Origin: a virus
Lineage: Duplodnaviria; Caudoviricetes
IMG/VR virus record: IMGVR_UViG_3300028591_000070
Coordinates: 128,001 to 192,000 of that record
Length of the DNA: 64,000 nucleotides
Strand: one strand, 5' to 3'
Both the position numbers and the translations under genes were made by a program. The notes under the pieces were generated by a model, which saw only the letters and a program-made list of their open reading frames with translations, was not told the DNA's origin and did not search any database. Shown here in pieces: positions 34,596-55,402 of the stretch; the stretch's first letter is position 1; each line of letters starts with the position of its first letter.

Positions 34596-34684
34596 TTCTG
34601 AGGGCGGGATTCGAACCTGCACGACTCGGGTATGAGTCACCAGAATCAAAATCTGGGGAGATACCAATTACTCTTTACCTCAGA
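34596..34684 (-). tRNA. tRNA-Gln(TTG) with atypical long variable arm (operon A)
   Basis: ccaga-TTTTGAT-tctgg, then hairpin gactc/gagtc. Confidence 0.75.
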
Positions 34685-34691
34685 GTGAAGA

Positions 34692-34776
34692 CGGATAAGG
34701 TGAGATTCGAACTCACGGAAAGTTTCCAATCACTTCCTTAGCAGGGAAGCCACATAAACCACTCGTGCACTTATCC
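34692..34776 (-). tRNA. tRNA-Ser(GCT) (operon A)
   Basis: cttcc-CTGCTAA-ggaag, long variable region, G73. Confidence 0.9.
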
Positions 34777-34786
34777 ATAATAAAAT

Positions 34787-34869
34787 TAGGAGCGGTTGGA
34801 TTTGAACCAACATCCACCAGTTAGACGCATTATACTGGACGGTTTATAAGACCGCGCTCATACGCTCCT
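34787..34869 (-). tRNA. D-armless tRNA-Ile(TAT)-like (operon A)
   Basis: Acceptor aggagcg/cgctcct, 7-nt linker instead of a D arm, gcggt-CTTATAA-accgt, long V hairpin, normal T arm. Confidence 0.65.
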
Positions 34870-34877
34870 ATGGTAGT

Positions 34878-34943
34878 TGGCTACAAGCGAGTCGGACGCT
34901 TCGAACTAGCCTTATGAGAGCCAGTTGGCAAACCTGCGTAACC
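34878..34943 (-). tRNA. Compact tRNA(CAT)-like, Met or Ile2 (operon A)
   Basis: 7-bp anticodon stem around CTCATAA, minimal D region, 3-nt variable loop, T loop TCCGACT. Confidence 0.55.
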
Positions 34944-35110
34944 AAAGAAAAATAGCTAGTTCAACATCATTCTGCAGGGTCACTAGCCTTGTTGTCACGT
35001 GGTTTTTTCCTTTATTGGAATGTGATACTTGCTTTCATATCATCTTTTCAGGTCGCAAACCTTCCATAAAGTAAGACAACGTTCTGCACTCCGGAACTTC
35101 CCCAGAATTT

Positions 35111-35183
35111 TTCTAGCGGTAGGAGTCGGACCCACACAAGCTTGATCCAGAGTCAAGAGCACTACCTATTATGCTACGCTAGA
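35111..35183 (-). tRNA. tRNA-Gln(CTG) (operon A)
   Basis: cttga-CTCTGGA-tcaag, U1-A72. Confidence 0.85.
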
Positions 35184-35184
35184 G

Positions 35185-35258
35185 TCGGCAAGATGGGACT
35201 CGAACCCATAAAATTCACATTTTGAGTGTGACACGTATTCCAATTCCGTCACTCACCG
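35185..35258 (-). tRNA. tRNA-Leu(CAA), short variable loop (operon A)
   Basis: tcaca-CTCAAAA-tgtga. Confidence 0.8.
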
Positions 35259-35264
35259 AAAACA

Positions 35265-35393
35265 AAAAGAAATAAGAATAAGCAAAAGAGTTCTGTGGGA
35301 CTTGAACCCACAAGCCATAAGGCGTTTGATTTGCGATCAAAATGAGTATACCAATTTCTCGAAGTAACTCTTTCAAACTGCATTATTTCTTTT
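35265..35393 (-). ncRNA. Y-RNA (YrlA-like) module carrying a non-permuted Leu-type tRNA body
   Basis: AATGCAG..GAGTTACTTCG motif and terminal stem; internal D arm, tttga-TCGCAAA-tcaaa, V arm, T arm. Confidence 0.7.
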
Positions 35394-35397
35394 ATAA

Positions 35398-35479
35398 TGG
35401 GCCTGGAGAGATTCGAACTCTCAATCCTTTCGGCGCCTGCCCCTTAAACAGGTGTGCATACCAATTCCACCACAGACCC
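35398..35479 (-). tRNA. tRNA-Leu(AAG) (operon A)
   Basis: cctgt-TTAAGGG-gcagg, long V arm. Confidence 0.85.
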
Positions 35480-35487
35480 AAATAAAG

Positions 35488-35569
35488 TCGACCAGGAGGG
35501 ATTTGAACCCTCAATCCTTACGGCGTCCGATCTTAAGTCGGATGTGCATTCCAGTTCCACCACTGGTCG
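35488..35569 (-). tRNA. tRNA-Leu(TAA) (operon A)
   Basis: tccga-CTTAAGA-tcgga, long V arm. Confidence 0.9.
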
Positions 35570-35576
35570 ATAAATA

Positions 35577-35647
35577 TGTGCTGGAGGGGAGTTGAACCCC
35601 CATGTGAAGAACCACAATCTTCCGTCCTACCGTTGAACGACCAGTAC
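35577..35647 (-). tRNA. tRNA-His(GTG) (operon A)
   Basis: gaaga-TTGTGGT-tcttc. Confidence 0.85.
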
Positions 35648-35649
35648 AG

Positions 35650-35722
35650 TCCCGCTGAGAAGATTTGAACTTCCACTTTATAGATTCTAAGTCTACTGCC
35701 TCTGCCGTTGGGCTACAGCGGG
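35650..35722 (-). tRNA. tRNA-Leu(TAG), short variable loop (operon A)
   Basis: gtaga-CTTAGAA-tctat. Confidence 0.85.
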
Positions 35723-35731
35723 AAAATAAAG

Positions 35732-35804
35732 TGTGAATGGTTGGAATCGAACCAACGACACGAAAATTTTCGGTCTTCTGCTCCACCTACTGAGCCACAT
35801 CCAC
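35732..35804 (-). tRNA. tRNA-Phe(GAA) (operon A)
   Basis: gaaga-CCGAAAA-ttttc (C33). Confidence 0.8.
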
Positions 35805-35811
35805 ATAAGAG

Positions 35812-35882
35812 CCCGGAGACAGGGAGTCGAACCCCAACTTTTGGATCTTCAGTCCAAAGCACTTCCGTTATGCAACCTCCGG
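35812..35882 (-). tRNA. tRNA-Phe(GAA), first gene of operon A
   Basis: ttgga-CTGAAGA-tccaa. Confidence 0.8.
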
Positions 35883-35931
35883 AAAATAAAAAACCCTCTC
35901 GATTTTTTCGAGAGGGCTCTATAAAAATTAA
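35883..35931 (-). terminator. Attenuator terminator A
   Basis: RNA cccucucga/ucgagaggg hairpin plus U-tract directly before the first tRNA; 5' arm complementary to the end of leader A. Confidence 0.85.
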
Positions 35932-35960
35932 ACTTATTATGAATCTATCACATATCAAAT

Positions 35961-36068
35961 CTAATTTCTATAAAGTCCTCCACCGAATAGGAGTATAAAC
36001 ATTTGCTGTAAAAACAAATGTAACTGGCTGAGAAAACTAAACTGATGTAAACTCATTGTATTGTTCAT
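35961..36068 (-). CDS. Leader peptide A: MNNTMSLHQFSFLSQLHLFLQQMFILLFGGGLYRN
   Basis: SD aggag; residues 5-28 use only M/S/L/H/Q/F/I, the tRNA set of operon A. Confidence 0.85.
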   Translation of the reverse strand: MNNTMSLHQFSFLSQLHLFLQQMFILLFGGGLYRN

Positions 36069-36154
36069 ACCTATACTCCTTTTATATTAAATTTTATAAT
36101 TTAATTAGTACAGTCACTAAAAGTAACTTACATATTTTATATTAACATAAACTT

Positions 36155-36878
36155 TTAACATGGGTCTCCCCAAGCATTATGTCTTATGTAGGTTGAAAAC
36201 CTGAAACCTTTATTTCTATCAGGTGGAAAAAGATGCACATAACCACTAAGCTCTTTTCTATCCATACCATCAAAAATGGAATATTCTACATACCAACCTG
36301 CATCAGTAAATTGTTTCCATGGAAGAAAGCGAATATCATCTGGAAAGTCTGGACTATCCCAAAAAAGACACGCTCTTGCATCTTCTATGGTATAAGGAAT
36401 TTCAAATACCTTAGTACTTGGATAATTGTTACCCTTATCTAGTTGCTGCTTTAAATCATCAGCAACAGCTTTCATTTTAGCATCAGAGTGCATGTTTATA
36501 TATTTTGCAATAGAATAATCATGTCTCTGTTTAATTTTAGCTTCTTCTTTCTCTACAACTTGTTCATATGTAGGGAAATTTTCCATAAAAACCTTCTTAC
36601 TTTTCAGAAATTAAATCTTCTTCAAAAGACATATGATACAACCAACAAGCTGCAGCTCTGATATTTGCTTCGGCTGCTCCTGGACCTTCAAGTTCAAACA
36701 TTTTAATTAAATCAGGTTCAGTATTGTAAATAGCAACTGCATCACCAGAAAGACCAACGATTAAATCTTCTTTCTTACCATTTTTATGGGTAAGAGTAAT
36801 ACCACCTTCTTTAGCATTCAAAACCTGCTTAAGGCGAGCAATCAGTCTTTTTTCTAAGTCTTCTGAAATTTTAATCAT
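36155..36878 (-). CDS. Two hypothetical proteins (36597-36878, 36155-36586)
   Basis: ORF track; GTATATTCTA motif just upstream. Confidence 0.6.
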
Positions 36879-36919
36879 CTTATTTAGAATATACCTCTTT
36901 GAGTTAAAAAATTCAAATC

Positions 36920-37909: not shown

Positions 37910-37935
37910 ATGATAAATTAGTGAGTAATATAAAT

Positions 37936-37962
37936 AAAAAAGAGGCTTATGAAAAGCCTCTT
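37936..37962 (-). terminator. Terminator ending tRNA operon B
   Basis: aagaggctt-..-aagcctctt plus T-tract on the minus strand. Confidence 0.8.
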
Positions 37963-37967
37963 AAAAG

Positions 37968-38045
37968 CCGGAGTAGTAGGAGTCGAACCCACCTTAAAAA
38001 GCTGGTTCCGTAGACCAGTGCACCAATCCGATATGCCATACTCCG
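37968..38045 (-). tRNA. tRNA-Arg(ACG) (operon B)
   Basis: ctggt-CTACGGA-accag. Confidence 0.85.
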
Positions 38046-38056
38046 AAAAATAAAAA

Positions 38057-38128
38057 CAGGAGCGGAAGGACTTGAACCTCCACCTGCAGGTTTTGGAGAC
38101 CTGGATGCTACCATTACACCACGCACCT
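38057..38128 (-). tRNA. tRNA-Trp(CCA) (operon B)
   Basis: caggt-CTCCAAA-acctg, G73. Confidence 0.9.
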
Positions 38129-38137
38129 ATATTAAAT

Positions 38138-38211
38138 TGAGCCCGGACAGATTCGAACTGTCGACCCTAACATTAAAAGTGTTATGCTACTACCATCTGA
38201 GCTACGGGCCC
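38138..38211 (-). tRNA. tRNA-Lys(TTT) (operon B)
   Basis: taaca-CTTTTAA-tgtta. Confidence 0.9.
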
Positions 38212-38220
38212 GAATTGTAG

Positions 38221-38307
38221 TGAGCGTGAGAGGATTTGAACCTCCGATGGGATTTCTCCGGAAGATTAAGAGTCTTCTGTATTCGACCAAGCTATACTAA
38301 CACGCCC
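38221..38307 (-). tRNA. tRNA-Lys(CTT) with long variable arm (operon B)
   Basis: gaaga-CTCTTAA-tcttc plus 15-nt variable region. Confidence 0.8.
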
Positions 38308-38317
38308 ATTTAAGAAG

Positions 38318-38401
38318 TGAGCGTGAATGGAATCGAACCATCCTAGAGGAAAAATCCTCCCAGATTAAAAGTCTGGTGCACGACCAATGTGCCACACGCC
38401 C
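38318..38401 (-). tRNA. tRNA-Lys(TTT) with long variable arm (operon B)
   Basis: ccaga-CTTTTAA-tctgg plus gagga/tcctc hairpin. Confidence 0.8.
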
Positions 38402-38466
38402 ATTAAGATAAATTGTGTTTCCATTTAATTCTGGCCACTTTCTATCCCAATGGACCGAACAGAAAG

Positions 38467-38634
38467 TTATGGCCTCTGTTTCTTCTTCATTTCTTCTTCA
38501 AATTCCTCTAAACGTTTCTTCCGTTTTTCCTCTCTAGATTCTTTATTAGCTTTGGCTTCTTCAGATTCTTTCATTATGTATTCATAAAGCTTTTTAGCTC
38601 CAGGTCCTTTAAATCTTGGTGCGCCACAATCCAT
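38467..38634 (-). CDS. Small Glu/Lys-rich protein (55 aa, MDCGAPRFKGPGAKKLYE...) inside operon B
   Basis: SD aaggaga, open frame; below the ORF-track size cutoff. Confidence 0.55.
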   Translation of the reverse strand: MDCGAPRFKGPGAKKLYEYIMKESEEAKANKESREEKRKKRLEEFEEEMKKKQRP

Positions 38635-38653
38635 ATAAAAAATCTCCTTTAAG

Positions 38654-38726
38654 AGATGGAGGTGGGAGTCGAACCCACAACGATAAGTTTTGCAGACTTA
38701 CTTCCTAGCCTTTCGGATTCTCCACC
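38654..38726 (-). tRNA. tRNA-Cys(GCA) (operon B)
   Basis: taagt-CTGCAAA-actta, U73. Confidence 0.9.
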
Positions 38727-38805
38727 ATAAACTTATTCATTTGTACAAACTTTTAGTTAACATCAATTTCTACGCCACATTCGAGTAATTGACAAACCTT
38801 AGGCT

Positions 38806-38877
38806 TACTGGATGTAGGAGTCGGACCTACCTAAGTCGTCTTGTAAGGGCGATACCTAGCCGATAGGTTAATCCAGT
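38806..38877 (-). tRNA. tRNA-Val(TAC) (operon B)
   Basis: tcgcc-CTTACAA-gacga. Confidence 0.8.
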
Positions 38878-39087
38878 ATAAAAACATATCATGCAAAATA
38901 CTATATAGTCTAAATATAAATGCTGCAGTTTCGAGATTAATCCTAAACCAGTACTTTGCTTCCCAGTTTGTATAGTTCGTCACACTTAGAAACAAATTAA
39001 GCAGCTTTAAACTACTTCTCCCATATTTTGTTCGATATGTCTGTTATTAGGTAGATCTCACTCAACCAAAGCTGATTTCTACCATAG

Positions 39088-39161
39088 TAGTCCAAGATGG
39101 AATTGAACCATCAACCTTCAGTTTATCAGACTGACACTCTAACCATTTGCGCTATTGGACT
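39088..39161 (-). tRNA. tRNA-Ile(GAT) (operon B)
   Basis: tcagt-CTGATAA-actga. Confidence 0.9.
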
Positions 39162-39169
39162 ATAAAATA

Positions 39170-39241
39170 AGTCGTAGATGAATTTCGAAATCACGACCTC
39201 CGAATTGGCAATCCGGCGCTCTGCCTCTGAGCTACTACGAC
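39170..39241 (-). tRNA. tRNA-Gly(GCC) (operon B)
   Basis: ccgga-TTGCCAA-ttcgg, U73. Confidence 0.85.
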
Positions 39242-39247
39242 ATGCAT

Positions 39248-39354
39248 ACCATAGAATATTGCAAAAAGTTTATAATCGCGTTCCCCCATAAATATCCTAA
39301 AAATTAAGATACTTATGGCGGAGAACGAAGTAACTCTTTGACTCCGCTTATGGT
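39248..39354 (-). ncRNA. Y-RNA-like module with long-hairpin cargo
   Basis: AAGCGG..GAGTTACTTCG, terminal stem accata/tatggt. Confidence 0.65.
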
Positions 39355-39359
39355 TTTAG

Positions 39360-39520
39360 TCGGTCGGCAGAGAATCGAACTCCACTTTCCCTTTTACTCT
39401 CACAGAGATGAATTCTACTCCAAAAGGCTTCATTCGTAGTTATTCCTTTCTTCTGTAAAACCATATCTCTATTACCCTCAAGGTGTATTCCTTTCATCTA
39501 CGAAAATCCAGGACGACCGA
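39360..39520 (-). ncRNA. tRNA-shell RNA with large internal insertion
   Basis: Acceptor tcggtcg/cgaccga and T arm GGAGTTCGATTCTC flank >100 nt. Confidence 0.55.
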
Positions 39521-39527
39521 TAATATT

Positions 39528-40106
39528 TTATATCCTTCCAGGTCTAAAACCTTCAGGACATTCTTTTGCTTTTATATTAATTTCTCCATTTGTATACCAA
39601 TGAGTACCAAATTGAGAATTTTTAGATCCTTTTTGATGTTCACTGTTTGTTAAACCAATTTTTCTTTTGGTTTCTTCTGAATGATGTTTACCAGTGAAAG
39701 TATCGTGTTTTTTCCAACCACAATTCTTAAAAAGATCTGGATGTTTTTCTCTTGTAGACTTCCAAGTTTTAGACATCTTAGAATAGTCTATAAACTTTGA
39801 AGTATCTCCTCCATCACCACCTTTAGCAAGATTATATTCTGCTTTACCAATAAGCTTTTGGCAAGCTATCATACATCTTTCAAAGCGATTAATTTGTTCT
39901 TTTGAGAAGAAACCAGAAACAAGAATTCTTTTTTTAAAAGACTTTTTTCCATATTTCTGATATGCTTCTCTAAGAATAGAACCAGAACCCATATATGTAT
40001 CAGATGTAATTGTACGATCTTTACGCACAGTATGCTGACCTATATAAGTTTTTCCATTCGTTAAATTTGTAATTTCATAAATATATCTTATTCGTAATTC
40101 ACTCAT
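39528..40106 (-). mobile_element. GIY-YIG homing endonuclease (Seg-like, NUMOD3)
   Basis: 'YIYEITNLTNGKTYIGQH', 'YMGSG', 'YNLAKGG', 'GKHHSEETKRKI'. Confidence 0.9.
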
Positions 40107-40136
40107 AAGATAATTAGTTAGAAATGTACAAATGAG

Positions 40137-40207
40137 TGGACACAGCCGGCATCGAACCGGTTAAACCTCCGTGCAAAAGAGGTGAGATGCCAAACCTCCC
40201 CAGGCCC
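40137..40207 (-). tRNA. tRNA-Ala(TGC) (operon B)
   Basis: Loop TTTGCAC, G3-U70. Confidence 0.75.
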
Positions 40208-40358
40208 ATAAAATAAGAGTTCTTTATATCTATAACTAAGCGCTCTATTTGTAGCTATAGATTTCACAGTGAACTTCGTGAACTTCTAATATCTGTGGAA
40301 GGCTGCGATTTTAGCTTATTAGTTCTAAAACCTCTGACACCAGTACCTTCAACGAGTT

Positions 40359-40432
40359 TGGAACATGTCGGACTTGAACCGACGACCTTCAGCTTGCAAA
40401 GCTGACACTCTAGCCAACTGAGTTAATGCCCC
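40359..40432 (-). tRNA. tRNA-Ala(TGC) (operon B)
   Basis: tcagc-TTTGCAA-gctga, G3-U70. Confidence 0.9.
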
Positions 40433-40440
40433 ATATAAAA

Positions 40441-40514
40441 AACATATAGAATAAAACTTGCGAGCTATATTTCAAACCCAAATCGAAGTAACTCACAAAA
40501 GCTGCTTATATGTT
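40441..40514 (-). ncRNA. Minimal Y-RNA-like module
   Basis: AAGCAG..GAGTTACTTCG, terminal stem aacatata/tatatgtt. Confidence 0.65.
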
Positions 40515-40519
40515 CTTAG

Positions 40520-40593
40520 CGAAAGCCATAGGACTCGAACCTACAATCTCCACCAACCCCTAGGTGGTGATGAACCAATTCATCTCTGCTTTC
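40520..40593 (-). tRNA. Atypical tRNA-Pro-like (AGG/GGG; 8-nt loop) (operon B)
   Basis: ccacc-TAGGGGTT-ggtgg; D and T arms intact. Confidence 0.5.
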
Positions 40594-40597
40594 AAAG

Positions 40598-40688
40598 CGG
40601 AAGCGGCAGGAATTGAACCTGTAAGACGCCCTCATCAGGCAATCGGCTGTTTTCAAGACAGATGAGCTCACCAATGCTCAGCACTTCC
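40598..40688 (-). tRNA. tRNA-Ser(TGA) (operon B)
   Basis: Loop CTTGAAA, long V arm, G73. Confidence 0.85.
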
Positions 40689-40702
40689 ATAATAATTTTT
40701 AG

Positions 40703-40778
40703 TCGGGCAGAGAGGACTCGAACCTCCGTTGAATGCTTGGTCCCAAACCAAGTGGCATCGCCGCTAGCCGACTGCCCG
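40703..40778 (-). tRNA. tRNA-Pro(TGG) (operon B)
   Basis: cttgg-TTTGGGA-ccaag. Confidence 0.9.
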
Positions 40779-40952
40779 ATAAACATCTTCGTGGAACTGG
40801 ATCCCTTGTTATACCACATTAGCTATCGCAATCACTTTATTGACTAGATAAAGTGCTCTACGAAATCACTACCAGACCCATATTGGTAAGCTACTTCATT
40901 TGCTATAGTCATCACAAATTTTTTACTTATTCTTCCAATACAAGAAAGATTT

Positions 40953-41023
40953 TCTGGTATGATGGAGTTGAACCACCGCCCCAAGTCTCCAAAGCTCGCA
41001 TGCTACCGTAACACCTATACCAG
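40953..41023 (-). tRNA. tRNA-Pro(TGG), first gene of operon B
   Basis: Loop TTTGGAG, C1-G72. Confidence 0.8.
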
Positions 41024-41027
41024 ATAT

Positions 41028-41068
41028 AAAATAAAAAAGGTCTTTCATTTCTGAAAGACCTTAAGTAA
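41028..41068 (-). terminator. Attenuator terminator B
   Basis: RNA aaggucuuuca/ugaaagaccuu plus U-tract; 5' arm complementary to the end of leader B. Confidence 0.85.
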
Positions 41069-41090
41069 ATCTATAAAAAAACTTATAACC

Positions 41091-41228
41091 TTACTTAAAG
41101 TCTTTCTCCTTTTTACCGGCAATAACCCATTTAGAAGAACAAGGCACAATACGAGGGGCAACTGCTTTCGCAGACGCAATAGAAGAGGCACAAATAATTG
41201 AACGACCGATAATTCCATTCTCTACCAT
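41091..41228 (-). CDS. Leader peptide B: MVENGIIGRSIICASSIASAKAVAPRIVPCSSKWVIAGKKEKDFK
   Basis: SD aaggag; residues 5-40 use only G/I/R/S/C/A/K/V/P/W, the tRNA set of operon B. Confidence 0.9.
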   Translation of the reverse strand: MVENGIIGRSIICASSIASAKAVAPRIVPCSSKWVIAGKKEKDFK

Positions 41229-41342
41229 AATCTTATTCTCCTTTATATTAAGTTTATACTATAATTAGTACAGTTACCAAAAATAACTTAATAAAATATT
41301 AACATTGTTTTTAGTATTTTATTAAATTATCTTCAAAAAAGA

Positions 41343-42230
41343 AAGCTGAGATTTATTGACTTTCCTCTGCGTCCATCTTCATCACTTTCGCAACTTAACC
41401 ACACTTTCATTTCTGAAAGTAGAACGCATAGCGAATAACTTAAAGGTGTTATCTACCTACTACAATAAGACTAATAATTTCATTTTTCATCCCTAGCGGC
41501 TTGCGGCCTAAGAAGCTTGCGGGCTCCTACCAGTTGATTACTTCAATCCATTCTTGACTTTCCTTGCGGTACTCACCAAGTCAACATATTACAGTTGAAT
41601 AACGCTATTTTCATCTTATCGTGACCAACACTTTTGCTTATCATGGCACAAAATGCTGGACTTGAACCAGCCACATTTAGATTAATAGTCTAACGCTCTA
41701 TCCTACTGAGCTAATTCTGTAATTATCGGTGAACTTCCTTGGGAGACGAGGTTGACCTTAATACCATGGCACCTTTTGAGTGCTTTAGGTAAATCGCCTC
41801 TCTTTTTTCGTCTGCTAAACTACTCAATCTAATAAAGTCAACATCTCTCACTTTCGCTTAAGCGTCAACATAATTCGTTATCATCTCACTCAGAATTTTG
41901 CATGTTCTTATTAGATGATATACATATCCCATATGTAAGCTTTCGACCCACATTCTTTTCAATCTTGTCTTTTAGACTTGATCTAAGCTCGTTGTTCAAC
42001 CGAGCAATACCACTGCAAACCTCAGCATTTGCCATCAATCTGCGCCATAGTATCTTGAATATGTAGTTTTCGTATGAAGTGATAAATCACCGCTGCACCT
42101 TTACGAATGCAACTTTCGCCGCTTATGAATTCACGGTTTATTCTAACGACTAGAAACCAGCCGGTGAACCCGAAGGTTCGATTAAATTACTGAGGATTGA
42201 ACCTCTATAACCTTGTAGTTAAGTAATTTA
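41343..42230 (-). ncRNA. Large structured ncRNA, GOLLD-like candidate with embedded tRNA
   Basis: ~890 nt without ORF, many GNRA/UUCG-capped hairpins (cGCAAg x3, gGCGAAAg, cUUCGg), own upstream TGTTAATAT motif. Confidence 0.5.
41644..41720 (-). tRNA. tRNA-Asn(ATT) with encoded CCA, inside the large ncRNA
   Basis: ttaga-CTATTAA-tctaa, G73-CCA. Confidence 0.8.
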
Positions 42231-42270: not shown

Positions 42271-42407
42271 GATTGAGAATTTTGTGAAAAAGTATTTTTA
42301 CGGCGTGCTAACCAACTACACTAAAGCTCCCATAAACGGAGCTTACAGGATTCGAACCTGTGATACCGGCGTGATAGGCGAAGTAACTTTTTCGATCTGC
42401 ATCAATC
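42271..42407 (-). ncRNA. YrlA-like Y RNA with circularly permuted tRNA-Asp-like domain
   Basis: ATGCAG..AGTTACTTCG, then tcacgccgg, T arm, closed acceptor hairpin aagctcc/ggagctt, D arm. Confidence 0.8.
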
Positions 42408-44813: not shown

Positions 44814-46499
44814 TTATTGCTGATTTACAGCATGTCTACCAGCTTTCTTGGCCTGTTTTTCCTGGTCTTTCTGAGCTTCGATAGCATCCCACTGCTTGAT
44901 ATAAGCGTCAGCGAATAATGCTTCTTTTCCTGTCCAACCATACAAGAATGCTGTACGGTAGCTCATTTCTGGAATAAGAACATTATCATATCCAGCTGTT
45001 TGACAGCTAAATACATTTACCTTTGGATTTACCTTTTTGCGATATTCCTGAATAAGTGCATAAACATTGATCATATGACCCTTACATCTGAAGCTTCTGT
45101 AGTCATCATCATTAAGACCATATAATCCACCTGTTCCTGCCTGCTGGTCTGAGAAAATGAAAATATTATCATAAACTTCTTTCTTTGCAATTGCATCTTT
45201 GAAGAATAACCAAATACCATTCTCAGTACCACCACCTACATCGTTATCTCCTCTGCTTGATAAAAGCTTTGTCTGAGCAAGAGCACCATTTCTCTTAGAA
45301 ACTGGAGATGTAATAAGTCTGTCACCAAATTTACCAACATAACCTTCATCTGAAGCTTTTGCAATTAAAATTGAAGACAAGTTGTCAATATCAGCAATAG
45401 TAGTCCTTCCATATTCAGAAGTAAATCCATGCCATGCAGAACCTGAGTTGTCAGAAAGAACCATTGTCTTTCCCTTCAACTTTGGTAAGTTTTCAATTGC
45501 AATGTCCATACACTCTTCAAGAGCATCAAGAATTAAAGTCTGGTGATTGATACCTGAAGCCTCTTCAATCATCTGATATGCATTCCAATATCTGAATGGG
45601 AACTGCTTACCTTTAAGGACTCCACCTTTCAAATCTTCCAAAACTTTCTTACAGAATTCTGTGTCTTTTACATCTGTGAAGATGTTTCTCAAGTTGCGTA
45701 AAAGAGCCATGTGCTGCATACAGCCTGACTCATAGATTTCACGCCAACCCATTCCAGCAGAGCGTTTCTGTTCCCAAGTTTCCCTGTCTTCAGTAACCTT
45801 TACTGTACCTGTCTGCATCAACTCATTCAAAACTGGTGAGTTTGCATGAGAAATACGAACACCATTGATCATACCAATTTCGTGGTTCTTGTATTTGTTA
45901 ACAGCATAAGCATCCAATGAGCTAAGTTTCTTAGCAATAGACTTTTTCAAGATTGTTGGAATCTTGTTTTTCTTACCACCATTAATATACATGTAATATG
46001 TAAGCTGAGTAAGTGGCTCATCTGCACGAGACATAACCAACTTTTCTACAGCTGCAAACTTTCCAGGATTTGCATTACAGAAATCAGCACGCTTTGGATG
46101 GATTGCTGCACGTACCATAATAACCTGTGGATTAAGGCGCATATTGTATGTTTTACGCAAATCAACTGCAAAGTCCAAAGTTCCGCCAAAGTCATAATCC
46201 AATGCCTTATCAATAGCTTCAGTAAATACCTCTGTTGTTGATTTTCCTGCACTAGCAGAGAAGATTGCATACATAGCTGGATCGGTAAATTCCTTTTGCC
46301 AAGAGAATTTTCCATCCTTTACATCTTTTCTGTAATAAGAAGCCTCACCAAAAATTGATGATGCTGAAATCAACTTGAGAGTATCAAGTGGATTTACTTT
46401 GTAAGAATCGCCACCCATAAAGTTTGTAACGATTTCATCTGGTCTAAGTTTATTCATCTCATTCATCTGAGATACTGCTTTAGCCATTTTCTTGCTCAT
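44814..46499 (-). CDS. rsr: Ro60/Rsr TROVE-vWA RNA-binding protein
   Basis: 'NFMGG.SY', 'MALLRNLRNI', 'FPFRY', vWA MIDAS-like 'SDNSGS', 'IFSD.Q'. Confidence 0.93.
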   Translation of the reverse strand: MSKKMAKAVSQMNEMNKLRPDEIVTNFMGGDSYKVNPLDTLKLISASSIFGEASYYRKDVKDGKFSWQKEFTDPAMYAIFSASAGKSTTEVFTEAIDKALDYDFGGTLDFAVDLRKTYNMRLNPQVIMVRAAIHPKRADFCNANPGKFAAVEKLVMSRADEPLTQLTYYMYINGGKKNKIPTILKKSIAKKLSSLDAYAVNKYKNHEIGMINGVRISHANSPVLNELMQTGTVKVTEDRETWEQKRSAGMGWREIYESGCMQHMALLRNLRNIFTDVKDTEFCKKVLEDLKGGVLKGKQFPFRYWNAYQMIEEASGINHQTLILDALEECMDIAIENLPKLKGKTMVLSDNSGSAWHGFTSEYGRTTIADIDNLSSILIAKASDEGYVGKFGDRLITSPVSKRNGALAQTKLLSSRGDNDVGGGTENGIWLFFKDAIAKKEVYDNIFIFSDQQAGTGGLYGLNDDDYRSFRCKGHMINVYALIQEYRKKVNPKVNVFSCQTAGYDNVLIPEMSYRTAFLYGWTGKEALFADAYIKQWDAIEAQKDQEKQAKKAGRHAVNQQ

Positions 46500-47614: not shown

Positions 47615-47722
47615 CCTAATCCTCAAGAGAAGCAAGTCCTAGCATTACAGATACAGCAACAACACCTACAATTAAAACTACTGCAATTACGCCTAACAAT
47701 ACTTTCATAATTACTCCACAAA

Positions 47723-47794
47723 AGGACCTATCCGGAATTGAACCGGACTCCACTCTTTAGGAGAGAGTTATTCTATCCGTTAAACTATAGGTCC
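47723..47794 (-). tRNA. tRNA-Arg(CCT)
   Basis: actct-CTCCTAA-agagt. Confidence 0.88.
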
Positions 47795-47806
47795 AATTAA
47801 GTGAGA

Positions 47807-48022
47807 TTAAACTCTTTCCCACTTATAGCCGTAAGCGCTATTACAAGTCCAATCTTTACCATAGTAATGCTGCTTACCATTTACTGCATGAGTAATTGCT
47901 ACTTTTGCTGCGTTTACAGATGCTGCTTTACCTTCTTCTACAAGCCACTCACCAGCAGCTGTCATAGAAGCAAACTTTTTTGTTTTCTTTCCCATAATGC
48001 ACTTTACTGCGCTTTTATACAT
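47807..48022 (-). CDS. Small NUMOD1/HTH-like DNA-binding protein
   Basis: 'KKFASMTAAGEWL...I..AVNG...SAYGYKWE'. Confidence 0.55.
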   Translation of the reverse strand: MYKSAVKCIMGKKTKKFASMTAAGEWLVEEGKAASVNAAKVAITHAVNGKQHYYGKDWTCNSAYGYKWERV

Positions 48023-48147
48023 GTGTTACCACCTTTAAAAATAGAATTAAAAATAAGTGTTGCTTTTAAGTCTTGGGAGCATTTATAGAGGTCCATATCT
48101 CAGAACTTGTAAATCTGTACCATCGGAAGCTAGCAACAAGCTATGCC

Positions 48148-48224
48148 TCAGCAATCCCGACTCGAACGGTGCTCTCCAACCTCGGGGTAAAAGGCTGGTG
48201 TGTTACCGCCTACACCAATTGCTA
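48148..48224 (-). ncRNA. tRNA-like RNA with 7-bp anticodon stem and 9-nt loop
   Basis: ccagcct-TTTACCCCG-aggttgg; D and T arms present. Confidence 0.55.
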
Positions 48225-48680
48225 CCATCTGTGGCGAGCAGCTCTTTTTTGTCCCAGTGAAAAAGAGTAAAAGTCCCCGACTACCTACCCAGTACGTCGA
48301 TTTCAGGCGCCCATTAACGTTTCTGCACTAGTCGCTATGCAACGGGAGCATTGTCTCCACGGAAGCTAGTTAGCCCTGTGCTTTTAGCAAACCATTGAAA
48401 AGAATTTAGTTTACCAAAAACCTAATCATGTTCCGTATTCATCAGACTATGTCTATCTCCAGGTCTATATCATTTTACATATTAGCTCGTGCGCTGGAGC
48501 CTGCACTGGATGAGTTACCATAGTCACTACTCATTTCCATTAGCACTAATAAGGCATGTTCGTATGTATCAAATTAAATTGATGCTTGCCACTACTGGAT
48601 TCTCACTAGGGAAGTGGTCCTCCTTAATAGCTTTCTGAAACATGCAAGTCAACATCAACCTATTTATAGAATATACTTTT

Positions 48681-50220
48681 TTATTCAAATAAGTTCAACA
48701 TGTTATTAAGTATTCTTTCAAGTTCTGGAGCATCTCTTTCATTAAAAGATGTTGATGTTTTAATTCCAGATTTTAATTTAAGAGCATAATTATCAAAAAT
48801 ATCTACATAGAAAAAATTATCCTCATAAACAACTCGCAATATTTCTGAAGTACAATTACACTCAAAATAGCCAATTTCATTATAAGGTGGATGACTAATA
48901 TAATCTCTTAATCTTAAGACTGTTTCCTTTCTAAGAAGAATATGCTCCCATCCTTCTCTCTTTTTTAAGGCTTTAGAATTTAAAATTGTAATTCCAAGCC
49001 AAGGTTCATCATTATGAAAAACAAAATAAAGAACATCACCATCTTGACAATAAAACTTATCTTCTATATAATCTTTCATAAGCTTAATCCCACCAGCTAT
49101 CACCATTCTCTGCCATATATTCAGCAATCTCATGGTAAAGATTTTTGCGATCTTGTCTATAAAGCTCTTCAGCTTCACAAAGCCTTTTACTCTTTTCGTC
49201 TGGATCTTTAACAGAGTCCCACATCTGATAATATTTATCATCTGTATCACTCATATAAATGAGTTTCTTAAGCATATGTCTAAAATGCAAAAGTTCTACC
49301 AAGTTTCTTCTCAAACCTCTTGCCTTAGATTTGATATAAGGTGATAATTTAGCATAAACTTTCATATCATCTATAGTCATTGTTTGAGCGCCACTAAGGA
49401 AACTTTTTAATACATCTATTTTAATGCCTTTGTCATCAACAATTTTTTGAATATCAGTCCAAGTATAGCAAGAAGGGAAATATGTTACACCTTCTTCTTT
49501 TTTAACTCTATACTGTGGAGCTTCTTCATGTCCTAAATCTGGCTCATCTAAATTTAAGTAATACTGTTTTTTCTTTTCAGGAATTTCAGAAGGTGGAATC
49601 TGCTCATCATAAGTCCTTTTAATTCCCCAAGTAGTTGTCCATCCCCATCCATCAAACGCATCATTATGATATAAATAATAATGAAGTAAGCCACTATCCG
49701 AAATAGACTTATCAACCTCTTCGTTTCCAATCCACCAAGAGTTTTCAAAACCTACATATTTTTTGTGTTTGCGATCTTTTTTTGTAACAGTTTCACGTAA
49801 TTCTTTATCTGAGTAAAGTTCTATTCTATGAAAGTTCCAACAATATTTATATTTTTTTGGGTTTTTTTCACAATTATCTAAAACTTGTCTGGCAAAAATA
49901 CCTCTATCACTATCTGTAGCGCCTTCTTCAAAAAATCTAAAAGAGTCAACATAAAAATATTGATGATAAGAATATTTTTTAAGGTTATGAAACATGTGCT
50001 CTGTTTTTAAAAGAGCCATCTGTAAAATGTCTGAGTCTCCATTCCAAGTACAAGTTAGGGTATCACGAGCTCTTTTGTCATATTTTGAAGGCTCATATTT
50101 CTGAGTATCATCATTGAGATAATAGTGTGGTGTCTTTCTGAAACGATACCAATATTCTGTTTCGACAAACTGAGAAATAACCCTTTTTAATTCGCGGAAT
50201 GGTTTTAATATTTTTATCAT
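48681..50220 (-). CDS. Two hypothetical proteins (49084-~50220; 48681-~49079)
   Basis: ORF track; likely starts at the internal Met after the GTTAATAT motif and after the upstream stop. Confidence 0.6.
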
Positions 50221-50909: not shown

Positions 50910-50916
50910 TATAAAA

Positions 50917-51062: not shown

Positions 51063-51066
51063 ATAT

Positions 51067-51163
51067 TCACGGGAACTGGATTCGAACCAATACCTATAGC
51101 CGTACGTCTATCGCTCATCCATGACCTCAGGGCCCTGCGACCACTTTTTAAGCTATCCCGTGA
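51067..51163 (-). ncRNA. Degenerate tRNA-shell RNA
   Basis: cacggga/tcccgtg acceptor plus T arm; non-canonical middle. Confidence 0.5.
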
Positions 51164-51168
51164 TAAAA

Positions 51169-51239
51169 TTCTCCCGCTAGGACTCGAACCCAGCCTGTAA
51201 GGATCAAAACCTCATGTGCGACCGCTACACCACAGGAGA
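51169..51239 (-). tRNA. tRNA-Gln(TTG)
   Basis: tgagg-TTTTGAT-cctta, U1-A72. Confidence 0.88.
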
Positions 51240-51246
51240 ATATAAG

Positions 51247-51321
51247 TAGTTCCACAGGGATTCGAACCCTGGATCTCCACCTTGAGAGGGTGGCGTGTTT
51301 AGCCAAGTACACTATGGAACC
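51247..51321 (-). tRNA. tRNA-Glu(CTC)
   Basis: ccacc-CTCTCAA-ggtgg. Confidence 0.9.
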
Positions 51322-52165
51322 ATGTTTTTTGGAATAAGTGTGCCATCTTTTAACCAAGCTTTTGGAGTAAAATTTGGCATAGGTTGTAGTGTCTCAAAAG
51401 ACCACCAAGCATTATCCTTTTCATCCCAAAGACCATAGCCAATACCTTTAGAACCATCGCTGTTGAAACCAACTAAAAGAACAACTCCTTGCTCTTTACC
51501 AACTTCTAAGTTATAGTTCCAAACAGCTTCAACTGTTTCTATCATATAAAGAATATTAACAAAAAAGGATAAAACTTTTTTAATTTAGTTCGTTTTGCTG
51601 ACTTCACAGCGTGCTTACTCTTCATTAGCAAGACTTACCGTTTATAACTATCTAAACTCAACGCTTTATTCCGCTCCTTAGCTTGACAAACAAATTAAAG
51701 ATAGCTGCTAGAGTACCAATTTAATGGTATGGGTTATTTTCGCGAAGGTGAACTACACCTTCTTTATTACTCTCTAGCCTTCCCAACCTGACTTATACAG
51801 GACCTATCCGCTGAACGGATTCAGTGCACCTTTTTGGTAAGCGGTGTGGTATACTGCATATGTATCACCGGTAGTTTTAATCTCTATATATAGATTATAC
51901 CAAAACTAAGACTTTTGTTCAATTTTTCTTTTGTAAGAAATAATATCTCCAGTCTTTTTTAATAGTTCAATAACTTCTTCATTAGTTGTTACTTTTTCTC
52001 TGAGAATAGTTGCACCACAAGGAATCCACATTCCAAAAGTAGCAAGATTCTCAGTTGGATTTATAGAACATCCATACCCATTTCTACCAGTATTTTTAAA
52101 CATTCTACTGTTTAAGTCTTTTCTTTCATAAGAACCAATTCTTAAAGGTAAAGTTTCTAAATCTA

Positions 52166-53209
52166 TCATAATAGTCCTAATAATTTTAATAATGCAATGT
52201 CAGTATTTGAATAACTTTTTGGAGCAATATCATAAGGTGTATATTCCAACTCATCCATTTTTTCAGTATCTAATATTCTATAAGTGTTGTGGTCTCTTGT
52301 ATCTGTTAAAATTAAATGCTTATTTTTATAAACATAATTTTTATTTCCACATTCAGTGTGGCCTACAACCTGATATTTAATTCCTCTTGGCCAGTTATCT
52401 TGCAATAAAGAGTCTGGTCTTATCCATACACAACTTTCTCCTGAACTATCGCCTGTATTACTCCAACCGCAATGTTCAAAAACTTCTGCATTATATGGGT
52501 CACCTTTATTAGGTGAATGAAATACCTCATTTAAAAACTTATATGATGCATACTTATAATAATCTTTTTTATAAGATTGCATTTCTTCAAAAGTTTTATT
52601 TATCTGATCTTGAAGGTTGGCCTGAATTTTTCTATATTCAGCAATTCGCGATTTTTCTTCTTCTGTTTCTGCATTTACAAGAGAAAAAATCATTCCATCA
52701 AAATAAACTTCATTTATATTATGAGATTTATAATCTAAATCAGTATATCTATCCATGAGTTCTTGTGGAACATCATCAAATTCATGCTTTAAGTTTATAA
52801 AATACTTTACATGCTGAAGCCACTGTTGCGATACTCCTGCATGAGAGAATAAAATATTATCTACTTTATAGATGATATTAAGCTTGTCAATATTATCTAC
52901 AAACATCTTTTTATACTTATCAGCATATTCATAGTGATGGCCACTAACACATTCGCCATTTCTAGTTTGAGCTAAATAACTTAAACAATGATTTCCAAAT
53001 AATAGTTCAAACTTCTCAGGCTCTTTATCCTTAAATTCAATAAGTTGACTAAAACCATCTATCATTGGCTGACCATTAAGATCTTCATCAAAGTCGTCAA
53101 CATAGTCACCTAAAACAACAACTTTATCGACTTCATCTTTATGGTCTTTAATATTTTGGAGAGCTGCAGCATAATTACCATGAATATCTGGTATAACTAA
53201 AATCTTCAT
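52166..53209 (-). CDS. Calcineurin-like metallophosphoesterase with coiled-coil insertion
   Basis: 'PDIHG', 'LGDYVD', 'GNH', 'SHAG', 'WIRP', 'VGHT'. Confidence 0.9.
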   Translation of the reverse strand: MKILVIPDIHGNYAAALQNIKDHKDEVDKVVVLGDYVDDFDEDLNGQPMIDGFSQLIEFKDKEPEKFELLFGNHCLSYLAQTRNGECVSGHHYEYADKYKKMFVDNIDKLNIIYKVDNILFSHAGVSQQWLQHVKYFINLKHEFDDVPQELMDRYTDLDYKSHNINEVYFDGMIFSLVNAETEEEKSRIAEYRKIQANLQDQINKTFEEMQSYKKDYYKYASYKFLNEVFHSPNKGDPYNAEVFEHCGWSNTGDSSGESCVWIRPDSLLQDNWPRGIKYQVVGHTECGNKNYVYKNKHLILTDTRDHNTYRILDTEKMDELEYTPYDIAPKSYSNTDIALLKLLGLL

Positions 53210-53450
53210 ATATGAAAAATATTAACTCTGTTTAAAATAAAAAATGTCGGGGATTTCTATTGAGTACCCCGACAGTCATCTCTCATACCAAGTTTACGAT
53301 AGCCTTGGCACATTGGGTTGTTATCCCAGCAGAATTGCAATCAACTCTGCAAAAAAGCTTTAAGGTTTGCTATATCGCAAGCTTATGAACCATAGATTGT
53401 TTCACCACCAAGTTTATCTGGTAGAAACGAAATTCTATCGCAAAACAGTA

Positions 53451-53527
53451 TCTCGGGTGATGGAATCGAACCATCCCGATATCGAGCTTATGAGGCTCGT
53501 AAGCCACAACCAGTGCTTCAACCCGAA
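53451..53527 (-). tRNA. tRNA-Met/Ile2(CAT) (operon C)
   Basis: cgagc-CTCATAA-gctcg. Confidence 0.75.
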
Positions 53528-53528
53528 T

Positions 53529-53655
53529 TGCCAAATGCTGGACTTGAACCAACCTACCATATCACTTCCGTAACTAATCAAACCTTAATTAAGGTTTTAA
53601 GGTTGTGCTCCACAACCAATCTTAGGTGATATCCTCTGCCTTTCGAGACTTGGCA
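53529..53655 (-). ncRNA. tRNA-shell RNA with two hairpins replacing the anticodon loop
   Basis: gccaag/tttggc acceptor, D-like arm, atatcac/gtgatat stem, T arm. Confidence 0.6.
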
Positions 53656-53663
53656 TAAAAAAC

Positions 53664-53789
53664 AGTTTAAGAATACTTCAAACGGTTTGCTGCTGAGCAG
53701 CGAGATTGGGACCTTTCCCATCATCCAATGAATGGCGGATAATATAAGAATCGAACTTATGAAGTAACCGTCCAAAACTGCATTAAACT
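53664..53789 (-). ncRNA. YrlA-like Y RNA, permuted (T arm, closed acceptor, D-like hairpin)
   Basis: AATGCAG..CGGTTACTTC; ATAAGTTCGATTCTTAT. Confidence 0.75.
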
Positions 53790-53793
53790 ATAG

Positions 53794-53866
53794 AGTACCA
53801 GAAGGGACTCGAACCCTCTACATCCGACTTGGAAGGACGGCGCTCTACCAGATGAGCTACTGATAC
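53794..53866 (-). tRNA. tRNA-Gly(TCC) (operon C)
   Basis: Loop CTTCCAA, U73. Confidence 0.88.
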
Positions 53867-53873
53867 ATAAAAA

Positions 53874-54011
53874 ACATTTTAAGTAAAACGAAAAGAGTGT
53901 TGAATCAGCTTTCAGTGGGGATCGAACCCACAAATATTCATTAACAGTGAATTGTTTAACCATTAAACTACAAAAGTATTGAAGTAACTCTTTTCAACTG
54001 CATTAAAATGT
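53874..54011 (-). ncRNA. Y-RNA module enclosing a complete non-permuted tRNA-Asn(GTT)-like cloverleaf
   Basis: AATGCAG..GAGTTACTTC; attca-CTGTTAA-tgaat; D and T arms. Confidence 0.75.
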
Positions 54012-54014
54012 CTC

Positions 54015-54087
54015 TAGTCCATGAGGGAGTCGAACCCACGTCTTTTGGATGAAAACCAAATGGCGACTGCCGTTAGCCGAATGGACC
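54015..54087 (-). tRNA. tRNA-Glu(TTC) (operon C)
   Basis: tttgg-TTTTCAT-ccaaa. Confidence 0.85.
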
Positions 54088-54094
54088 ATAAAAA

Positions 54095-54235
54095 ACAACT
54101 AAGAAAAAATTGAACAGTACGTTTTTACCTGCTCTACCAACTGAGCTACATCTCCACGAATTGGAGACGACTGGATTCGAACCAATGACACGGGGTTTTC
54201 AAGACCGAAGTAACTGTTACGTCTGCATTAGTTGT
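54095..54235 (-). ncRNA. YrlA-like Y RNA with permuted tRNA-Phe-derived domain
   Basis: AATGCAG..CAGTTACTTCG; TTGAAAA-ccccgtgtc; T arm; closed acceptor gtctcca/tggagat; TAGCTCAGTTGGTAGAGC. Confidence 0.82.
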
Positions 54236-54314
54236 ATTATTATGTGGGGCATTACTTTTTAAGAACACCGTCGCATTCTTAATTGTCACCGTCGCAACAT
54301 AAAGTTTTGCCTCT

Positions 54315-54387
54315 TAGTTCTTGCGAGATTCGAACTCACTCCTCGTCCTTGAAAGGGACGCGACTCAACCAATTTGTCCTAAGAACC
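54315..54387 (-). tRNA. tRNA-Glu(TTC) (operon C)
   Basis: cgtcc-CTTTCAA-ggacg. Confidence 0.9.
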
Positions 54388-54478
54388 ATGGCGGCCAACG
54401 GTTTAATTTTAGGTGGAACCTCAGGTCTGTAAAAACCACCTTATTTTTAGGATTTAATCTTATAATCCGCAAAGAATA

Positions 54479-54549
54479 AGCTACGTGTAGGAGTCGAACC
54501 CACCTCTCTTGATTACAGGTCAAGACCTCAACCGATAAGACAACGTAGC
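54479..54549 (-). tRNA. tRNA-Thr(TGT) (operon C)
   Basis: cttga-CCTGTAA-tcaag. Confidence 0.8.
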
Positions 54550-54701
54550 ATATAAAAATTATAAAAGAAACCGCGAAAAACTTTTACTGAATGTTACACT
54601 TTGCCTACTTGCACAAGGCCACTCTCACACTCTTTCAGCTTACTGTCATAGACAGCTTACCTTTCAACCCATTACAAGTTCCTGGGCTCGATTTTTTATA
54701 G

Positions 54702-54776
54702 TTTCGGAAATAGGAGTCGAACCTACTATTTCTAGCTTATGAGGCTAGCGTGATAAATCCGTTTCACTCTTCCGGA
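54702..54776 (-). tRNA. tRNA-Met(CAT) (operon C)
   Basis: ctagc-CTCATAA-gctag. Confidence 0.82.
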
Positions 54777-54850
54777 CGGGATAGGCGGGACTCGAACCCG
54801 CGACCTTCGCGCTGACAACGCGTCGAGCTAACCAACTGCTCCACAACCCC
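54777..54850 (-). tRNA. tRNA-Asp(GTC) (operon C)
   Basis: Loop TTGTCAG, G73. Confidence 0.85.
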
Positions 54851-54991
54851 AAAAAATGTTTGATGTTTTAAGTGTTATCGTCTCACTAGGGATTAATCGT
54901 TTGTCCACTATCGTTATCATAGTGAGCACGAGGAATCCTCCACCATCAGCTCTTTAGAGAAGCTGAAAACTCCTGTTTACTTAAAAACATA

Positions 54992-55064
54992 CGGTTTGTG
55001 CGAGAATCGAACTCGCCATCCCCTGCGTGACAGGCAGGTGTGATAACCGATACACTAACAAACC
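54992..55064 (-). tRNA. tRNA-Asp(GTC) (operon C)
   Basis: cctgc-CTGTCAC-gcagg, G73. Confidence 0.9.
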
Positions 55065-55070
55065 ATAAAG

Positions 55071-55156
55071 TGCTCAGGGGGAGATTCGAACTCCCTGCGT
55101 ATCTTACGTGTCGGTTTTACAGACCGATGCTACTCCACCATCGTAGCCGCCTAAGC
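55071..55156 (-). tRNA. tRNA-Tyr(GTA) (operon C)
   Basis: tcggt-CTGTAAA-accga, long V arm. Confidence 0.9.
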
Positions 55157-55167
55157 ATAATTTTTAG

Positions 55168-55239
55168 CTGGCCGTGCGAGAGTTGAACTCGCCTAGGCGG
55201 ATTAACAGTCCGCTGCCTAAACCGATTGGCTAACGACCA
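55168..55239 (-). tRNA. tRNA-Asn(GTT), first gene of operon C
   Basis: gcgga-CTGTTAA-tccgc, G73. Confidence 0.9.
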
Positions 55240-55241
55240 AT

Positions 55242-55280
55242 AAAATAAAAAAGCTCTCCGAAAGGAGAGCTCATAAAACT
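55242..55280 (-). terminator. Attenuator terminator C
   Basis: RNA agcucucc-uuuc-ggagagcu plus U-tract; 5' arm complementary to the end of leader C. Confidence 0.85.
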
Positions 55281-55300
55281 TTTTTAATTATATAGTTTTA

Positions 55301-55402
55301 TTAACTCTCTCTTTTATACAAAGTAGTTTCTTCTGTCCCATAATCATATGTTACATTTTCATAAGAGAAATTATTATTGTAATCATAATTCATAGTAAAC
55401 AT
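55301..55402 (-). CDS. Leader peptide C: MFTMNYDYNNNFSYENVTYDYGTEETTLYKRES
   Basis: SD ggagg; 23 of the first 27 residues are M/N/Y/D/T/E/G, the tRNA set of operon C. Confidence 0.85.
   Translation of the reverse strand: MFTMNYDYNNNFSYENVTYDYGTEETTLYKRES

Follow-up and report, generated by a model that had tools for sequence, protein, structure and literature searches.

Within a stretch of 64,000 nucleotides (nt) of a tailed phage (hereafter the window; positions 128,001 to 192,000 of the IMG/VR virus record IMGVR_UViG_3300028591_000070), three large tRNA operons, A, B and C, are each preceded by a short leader open reading frame (ORF) and an intrinsic terminator, and each leader is composed largely of codons which the tRNAs of its own operon decode. 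Since the geometry, the codon match, the conservation of the reading frame and the co-variation of leaders and tRNA arrays across phages all agree, we conclude that each unit is probably a ribosome-mediated transcription attenuator exerting negative feedback on the phage's tRNA supply via decoding speed; we put the probability of this reading at about 85%.

An earlier reading of the window's letters alone (in the following, the original prediction) had described promoter motifs, a Shine-Dalgarno (SD) sequence, an ORF of 33–45 codons and a terminator ahead of the first tRNA of each operon, and this layout was located at all three operons, all on the minus strand (Table 1, in window coordinates). 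An AGGAG/GGAGG SD lies 7–10 nt upstream of each leader ORF, a spacer of 29–43 nt separates the ORF from the terminator, and the first tRNA follows about 8–13 nt after the latter. A motif of 25–26 nt upstream of the leaders occurs in exactly three copies in the window, one per leader, and in none of 100 shuffles. Its GTTAATA and ACTAAT portions are probably phage promoter elements, as both are enriched 7–12 fold upstream of ORFs across the genome. Between them lie short inverted repeats (approximately 36131–36114, 41290–41273 and 55468–55451, minus strand); because their arms differ among the units and tolerate G-T pairs, they are more suggestive of a hairpin in the 5′ RNA than of an operator bound by a protein. 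Among the tRNAs of operon A, Ile(TAT) (34787–34869, minus strand) is atypical in that its D-arm is very short and its variable arm long (RF00005, 34.8 bits); it was not called by ARAGORN with default settings, and a relative carries Ile-TAT at the same place. The CAT tRNA of this operon (about 34877–34944) folds as a cloverleaf and may be Met or Ile2.

The original prediction held that each sensor is built almost only from the amino acids of its own operon, and it proposed to compute the probability of such compositions. Scored with wobble rules against the window genome's codon usage, 25/34 codons of leader A (expected fraction 0.23, P = 4e-10), 38/44 of leader B (0.41, P = 6e-10) and 24/32 of leader C (0.40, P = 5e-5) are read by the own operon, and no leader matches either of the other operons more often than expected, e.g., 1/34 and 1/44 between A and B. 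Leader C is the loosest match, since F, F, S and V within its sensor fall outside the decoding of operon C. Mismatched codons are concentrated in the first 2–5 codons and in the helix-forming tail. When 2077 chance small ORFs of the genome were scored likewise, leaders B and C were each the top scorer; the match fraction of leader A was reached or exceeded by 11 of them, with A's matches forming 24 consecutive codons. Jointly, the matched residues of the three leaders cover all 20 amino acids, as had been claimed. The match proposed at the level of isoacceptors stands for Ser (AGY three times in A, TCN six times in B), Ile (ATA in A, ATT/ATC seven times in B) and Arg (CGT twice in B), while the use of GAA for Glu is uninformative. 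Given the amino acids, this level of agreement has a probability of about 1e-2.4 for A and 1e-2.8 for B.

The pairing of the stop codon region with the 5′ arm of the terminator was likewise found in A, B and C: the last codons and the stop are complementary to the spacer and to most of this arm, with antiterminator energies of −20.1, −21.3 and −17.0 kcal/mol, respectively. Among 65 terminators of the genome, ranked by their upstream antiterminator duplex (mean −8.2, standard deviation 3.6), the three leader terminators take ranks 1–3, and helices as strong as the real one arose in only 1 (A), 0 (B) and 2 (C) of 2000 shuffles. We modelled the ribosome as an unpaired footprint moved along the leader and computed the pairing of the terminator arm with the antiterminator. 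The modelled pairing is near 0.9 across the sensor and drops at codons 25–28 (A), 38–40 (B) and 28–29 (C), positions which coincide with the end of the matched stretch in each leader. With no ribosome it is 0.88–0.93, and no 1:2 protector helix is evident. Therefore, according to the model, an untranslated leader should read through, contrary to trpL, and a region-1 anti-antiterminator would not be needed. Of the trp/his-type geometry originally predicted, the competition between a stop-region antiterminator and the terminator is retained, whereas a trpL-like 1:2 helix is dispensable in the models.

Close relatives show how the leaders are constrained. Homologs of leader B form 17 clusters, and in 12 DNA variants every indel within the ORF is a multiple of three, in contrast to the spacer indels of A and B. 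Five variants of leader A differ by 5 synonymous and 1 non-synonymous changes. Taking A, B and C together, 13/27 distinct codon changes are synonymous (expected fraction 0.27, P = 0.015), and 13/13 of these stay within the codons decoded by the own operon. In 11 variants, among which the upper stem of helix B takes three versions, 99.2% of cells remain paired. A scan of metagenomes with the promoter pattern yielded mostly unrelated matches and a handful of close relatives. The good conservation in close relatives, together with the hydrophobic character of leader A, would also agree with peptides that act as proteins (a toxin, a membrane peptide or a decoy), the composition match being incidental. 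However, the synonymous codon choice follows the anticodons, none of the leaders has a Pfam or NCBIfam match, and the leaders of distant relatives, described next, share no sequence but only the matching of codons to the array; this co-variation largely refutes a function as peptides, which we hold to be barely credible.

The original prediction expected leader codons to co-vary with array content in related phages, and we consider this the decisive computational test. In the complete genome IMGVR 3300021387_000529 (G004), whose capsid protein is 67% identical to that of the window phage, two tRNA arrays divide the 20 amino acids differently, and two non-homologous leaders follow this split (Table 1); their union is again 20 amino acids. 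For Arg, this phage uses AGA as sensor codon and the window CGT, in keeping with the anticodon present in each. Two further relatives (G016, G022) have leaders with terminator and antiterminator in front of small arrays; in the leader of G022, W, S, F, Y and C account for 13 sensor codons in a row. In a permutation of seven leaders over seven arrays, the true assignment ranks 1 of 5040; the window genome's codon usage served as background for all phages, a simplification, and the candidate leader of G006 was left out of the set. As judged by these comparisons, the test is passed. Coincidence, i.e., short ORFs and terminators being common in AT-rich DNA, could appeal to the 11 of 2077 chance ORFs which reach leader A's match fraction. 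Nevertheless, three independent properties coincide at 3/3 operons and recur in unrelated sequences of four other phage genomes, and the permutation rank together with the top 3 positions among 65 terminators (about 1 in 43,680) refutes it, so that we assign it a negligible probability.

The design extends to a cultured phage. In the Caulobacter phage phiCbK, with units at 49540–49769 and 51341–51502 of NC_019405, 41/44 residues of gp335 (45 amino acids) are from the array behind its terminator, Pro-Thr-Lys-Leu-His-Ala-Ser (P = 3e-10), and an unannotated leaderless ORF of 32 codons (51341–51439) matches the next block in 21/31 codons (P = 6e-4) and has a clear antiterminator. A third short phiCbK ORF (L288:1580–1667) has 20 codons and a terminator before Glu/Asp tRNAs; its composition match is weaker. 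G006 (L144 about 2650–2790) has one array for most amino acids and a probably leaderless ORF of 24 codons with 16 amino acids; its stop lies within the antiterminator and 23/23 codons are read by the array (P = 0.08 and 0.03, not significant alone). No leader-plus-terminator was detected before the tRNAs of phage T5 or in six tRNA clusters of Treponema bryantii, with a detector that requires a hairpin and U-tract and mostly an SD, and may thus miss cases. In these data, codon-matched leaders are widespread but not universal, and they are unseen in the examined tRNA clusters of the likely host. One of the T. bryantii regions (strain XBD1002, L276:4671–6750) carries two blocks totalling about 20 tRNA genes, with a small helix-turn-helix-like ORF immediately upstream of each block and no leader-terminator; it looks like a mobile tRNA island.

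The same geometry bears on an alternative, control by Rho or by processing, in which the terminator is mostly leaky, or the hairpins are sites for RNase III or other processing, such that leader translation sets the stability or maturation of the tRNA precursor rather than read-through. The antiterminator helices are long (20–25 bp) and AU-rich, like RNase III substrates, and both helices are partly formed in the full-length fold. However, canonical hairpin and U-tract terminators stand 8–13 nt ahead of the first tRNA, the helix takes up the greater part of the terminator 5′ arm in all phages examined, and the distance from stop to terminator is 25–49 nt in eight leaders. We therefore consider such control very unlikely.

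The window belongs to a 386-kb jumbo phage (385,934 bp, 31.7% GC) with a Gp23-type capsid protein, a sigma70-family gene and a CCA-adding/poly(A) polymerase family gene. All 46 tRNAs called by ARAGORN and the one transfer-messenger RNA (tmRNA) of the record are inside the window. No RNA polymerase beta was matched in a search of the phage genome, from which a host-type polymerase is presumed. Sequencing runs containing the region are mostly from sheep and cattle gut, and the host is probably a rumen Treponema, because the phage flagellin is 73–77% identical to flagellins of rumen Treponema. The match to Flagellin_N in this Treponema-like region (G000 331069–331783; L184:1069–1791, minus) is in two pieces, and the 5′ part of the gene may be frameshifted or mis-assembled. 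In the phage collection searched, no cultured relative of the window phage was found.

We propose that a host-type RNA polymerase would start at the phage promoter and a ribosome would load onto the leader. As long as the tRNAs for the sensor codons are abundant and aminoacylated, the ribosome would reach the last 5–10 codons and the stop and cover the 5′ strand of the antiterminator; the terminator would then form and transcription end just before the first tRNA. If any of the sensor tRNAs is scarce, whether through cleavage, degradation, excess demand by late phage translation or lack of charging, the ribosome would lag in the sensor, the antiterminator would capture the 5′ arm of the terminator and the operon would be transcribed. 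The new tRNAs would decode the leader's own codons, closing a negative-feedback loop, and the three loops would jointly cover 20 amino acids. Leader translation in vivo, its coupling to transcription, regulated read-through and the inducing stress are what we infer from the features above. With decoding speed as the signal, cleavage, degradation, over-demand and lack of charging would be indistinguishable. More tRNA cures the first three, not amino-acid starvation, so a role in tRNA supply appears favored over one in starvation. The claim that only the matching tRNA set is switched on would hold only at the level of three bins, as each operon would answer to any of 7–10 specificities; the response would be coarse.

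Real attenuators could instead serve as a general switch for translation rate or infection timing, responding to ribosome availability, to polymerase outrunning the ribosomes or to host shut-off, with the codon match only fine-tuning the feedback and no single tRNA loss switching one operon. The predicted read-through of an untranslated leader agrees with such a switch, as do the just 1–7 codons for each specificity and the broad array of G006 with its 16-amino-acid candidate leader. On the other hand, it has no need for a strict operon and isoacceptor match that re-sorts when arrays are re-partitioned, and we regard it as improbable, though the least so of the alternatives.

Several points weaken the case for attenuation by tRNA shortage. 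About nine other tRNAs of the region (Leu-TAA twice, Asn-ATT, Ser-GCT, Arg-TCT, Arg-CCT, Gly-ACC, Gln-TTG, Glu-CTC) belong to none of the gated operons and have no leader, a weak spot of the observation, and in several related arrays (G015, G018, G021, G022a) the detector described above, which may miss cases, found no leader-plus-terminator. Four of ten amino-acid changes in the core of leader B leave the array set (6/10 stay). Covariation in helix B is slight, with 1 pair changed on both sides and a score reached by 32/500 shuffles. Coupling of transcription and translation in Treponema is assumed, no pause hairpin was identified in the leader units, and single sensor codons, such as Trp in B, may give a weak signal. 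The equilibrium fold of the full transcript permits the terminator beside a shortened antiterminator; the choice between them would therefore have to be kinetic, made during transcription. Finally, the available RNA runs are assembled gut-metatranscriptome contigs, which show neither ends nor levels and hence neither termination nor read-through; for this reason, a low-depth RNA contig of a relative over 55112–55302 was left unused as expression evidence.

trpL, hisL and leuL are leader-peptide transcription attenuators of amino-acid operons. With these and pheL, the phage units share a short ORF, cognate codons as sensor, a stop region within the antiterminator and a competing intrinsic terminator (mechanism of pheL/pheA: PMC3082878). 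The units also have SD-led ORFs whose frame is kept with a synonymous excess in relatives, codons that relate to what the downstream genes do, a terminator between the leader and the first regulated gene and, in silico, an antiterminator that is mutually exclusive with the terminator and that a ribosome at the leader end would block. In structure, then, they work like pheL/trpL attenuators as far as can be checked in silico. They differ in controlling tRNA genes rather than biosynthetic enzymes, in sensing 7–11 specificities per leader instead of one, and in needing, in models, no counterpart of the 1:2 pause/protector helix by which trpL terminates when untranslated. Multivalent attenuators such as ilvGMEDA and thrL sense 2–3 amino acids at most, and pheM-pheST of E. 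coli is an attenuator of an aminoacyl-tRNA synthetase. The former resemble the phage units in that one leader senses several amino acids, the latter in feeding back on charged-tRNA supply; in the phage, however, the product is the tRNA itself, the match reaches isoacceptors and the leader set tiles 20 amino acids. T-box riboswitches also choose between terminator and antiterminator in response to tRNA, but bind uncharged tRNA directly by one specifier codon without translation, whereas the phage units would act through translated leaders. RF00230 was unmatched at the gathering score or at E up to 1, and the three leaders have no Rfam, Pfam or NCBIfam match to known leader families (Trp, His, Leu, Thr, Phe); weak Leu_leader and Phe_leader matches at 34547–34668 correspond to the end terminator of operon A, not to leaders.

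Further RNAs surround the units. Just upstream of promoter B is a GOLLD-like large RNA (41343–41802, minus strand; RF02032, 96 bits, E = 2e-24, below the gathering score of 150) embedding a tRNA-Asn(ATT)-like element; RNA contigs of three studies over about 41400–42160 have by far the highest depth, although contig depth is a poor measure of expression. Twelve elements have a GCAG...GTTACTTC stem in common (Table 1), and several of them contain tRNA-like domains that are permuted or incomplete. Weak YrlA matches (54125–54194, 42283–42393), a TROVE/Ro60 gene (44814–46499) and RtcB (27033–28265) suggest that these elements are phage Y RNAs, in a family of unusual size. ARAGORN's Cys at 35286 and Asn at 53907 lie within such elements. 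In the loci retrieved, TROVE homologs of 67–74% identity are surrounded by protein-coding genes. Long RNA contigs from three studies cover 47666–48605 (minus strand) with tRNA-Arg(CCT), tRNA-Gly(ACC) and about 450 nt without ORF (48230–48680), possibly a further non-coding RNA. The phage tmRNA (55790–56155, minus strand) has an Arg/Ala-rich tag and its own GTTAATA motif upstream, and no leader.

Table 1. Features of the leader/tRNA-operon units in the window and of related leaders; handles denote other genomes or loci.
Feature	Position	Strand	Remarks
Promoter region A	36086..36147	-	GTTAATA motif, short inverted repeat, ACTAAT motif; predicted from motifs
SD of leader A	36076..36081	-	
Leader ORF A	35961..36068	-	35 codons; codons 5-28 all from {F,L,H,Q,M,I(ATA),S(AGY)}
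Antiterminator A	35911..35981	-	35981-35957 (last codons + stop) with 35935-35911 (incl. terminator 5′ arm)
Intrinsic terminator A (attenuator)	35890..35920	-	
tRNA operon A	34596..35882	-	Phe x2, Leu TAG/TAA/AAG/CAA, His, Gln CTG/TTG, CAT, Ile TAT, Ser GCT
Terminator closing operon A	34552-34577	-	
Promoter region B	41247..41304	-	same motifs as A; predicted from motifs
SD of leader B	41243-41238	-	
Leader ORF B	41091..41228	-	45 codons; codons 6-40 all from {P,S(TCN),A,G,I(ATY),V,C,K,W,R(CGT)}
Antiterminator B	41053..41106	-	41106-41083 with 41076-41053
Intrinsic terminator B (attenuator)	41037..41062	-	
tRNA operon B	37967..41024	-	Pro x2, Ser TGA, Ala x2, Gly GCC, Ile GAT, Val, Cys, Lys x3, Trp, Arg ACG
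GIY-YIG ORF inside operon B	within 37967..41024		
Terminator closing operon B	37940-37962	-	
Promoter region C	55422..55482	-	same motifs as A; predicted from motifs
SD of leader C	55419-55413	-	
Leader ORF C	55301..55402	-	33 codons; mostly {N,Y,D,M,T,E,G}
Antiterminator C	55261..55314	-	55314-55294 with 55280-55261
Intrinsic terminator C (attenuator)	55251..55272	-	
tRNA operon C	53451..55239	-	Asn x2, Tyr, Asp x2, CAT x2, Thr, Glu TTC x2, Gly TCC
GCAG...GTTACTTC elements	35368, 39334, 40492, 42387, 44502, 46674, 46780, 46951, 51040, 53768, 53988, 54214	-	
G004 array 1			Leu-GAG/TAA, His, Gly, Ala, Phe, Ser, Cys, Val, Met, Lys, atypical Ile-GAT
G004 array 1 leader	G004 5614-5468	-	48 codons; 45/47 codons matched
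G004 array 2			Leu-CAA/TAG, Thr, Asp, Asn, Gln, Glu, Pro, Tyr, Arg-TCT, Trp, Phe, Met
G004 array 2 leader	L143:3845-3970		41 codons; 34/40 codons matched
G016 leader for small array	L188:9664-9759		20/30 matched; terminator + antiterminator present
G022 leader for small array	about 241536-241450	-	13/27 matched; terminator + antiterminator present

Why phages carry tRNAs has been an open question for more than 50 years (PMC10264068). Phage tRNA arrays have been proposed as a replacement for depleted or cleaved host tRNAs (PMC10264068; opinion PMC11025619); the large tRNA set of the window phage fits this hypothesis, and neither a sensor nor a regulation of arrays is described there. As the original prediction had supposed, no description of attenuation at tRNA genes was found in the literature searched, including these two papers and PMC13015707, with subscription papers thinly covered. 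This locus contributes a tiling of the code that is complete over three operons, along with a relative that divides the code in another way. Leader-peptide attenuation would thereby be extended to tRNA genes, whose product is itself the signal, and replacement-type arrays would gain a candidate for on-demand control. A sensor firing when the phage's own tRNA specificities run short argues for arrays as an on-demand supply against shortage or cleavage. We give even odds to the wider view that large phages of unrelated hosts (the Treponema-associated clade, Caulobacter) use isoacceptor-resolved feedback on tRNA supply, with code-tiling attenuators sensing tRNA loss, including cleavage by anticodon nucleases, and inducing the replacement operon as a counter-defence. 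The leader further offers a way to read odd tRNA identities and operon limits. Since phiCbK is a cultured phage of a tractable host, the design is testable now, turning the question of why phages carry tRNAs into simple reporter tests; if the proposal is true, leader codons would list the tRNAs which run short during infection.

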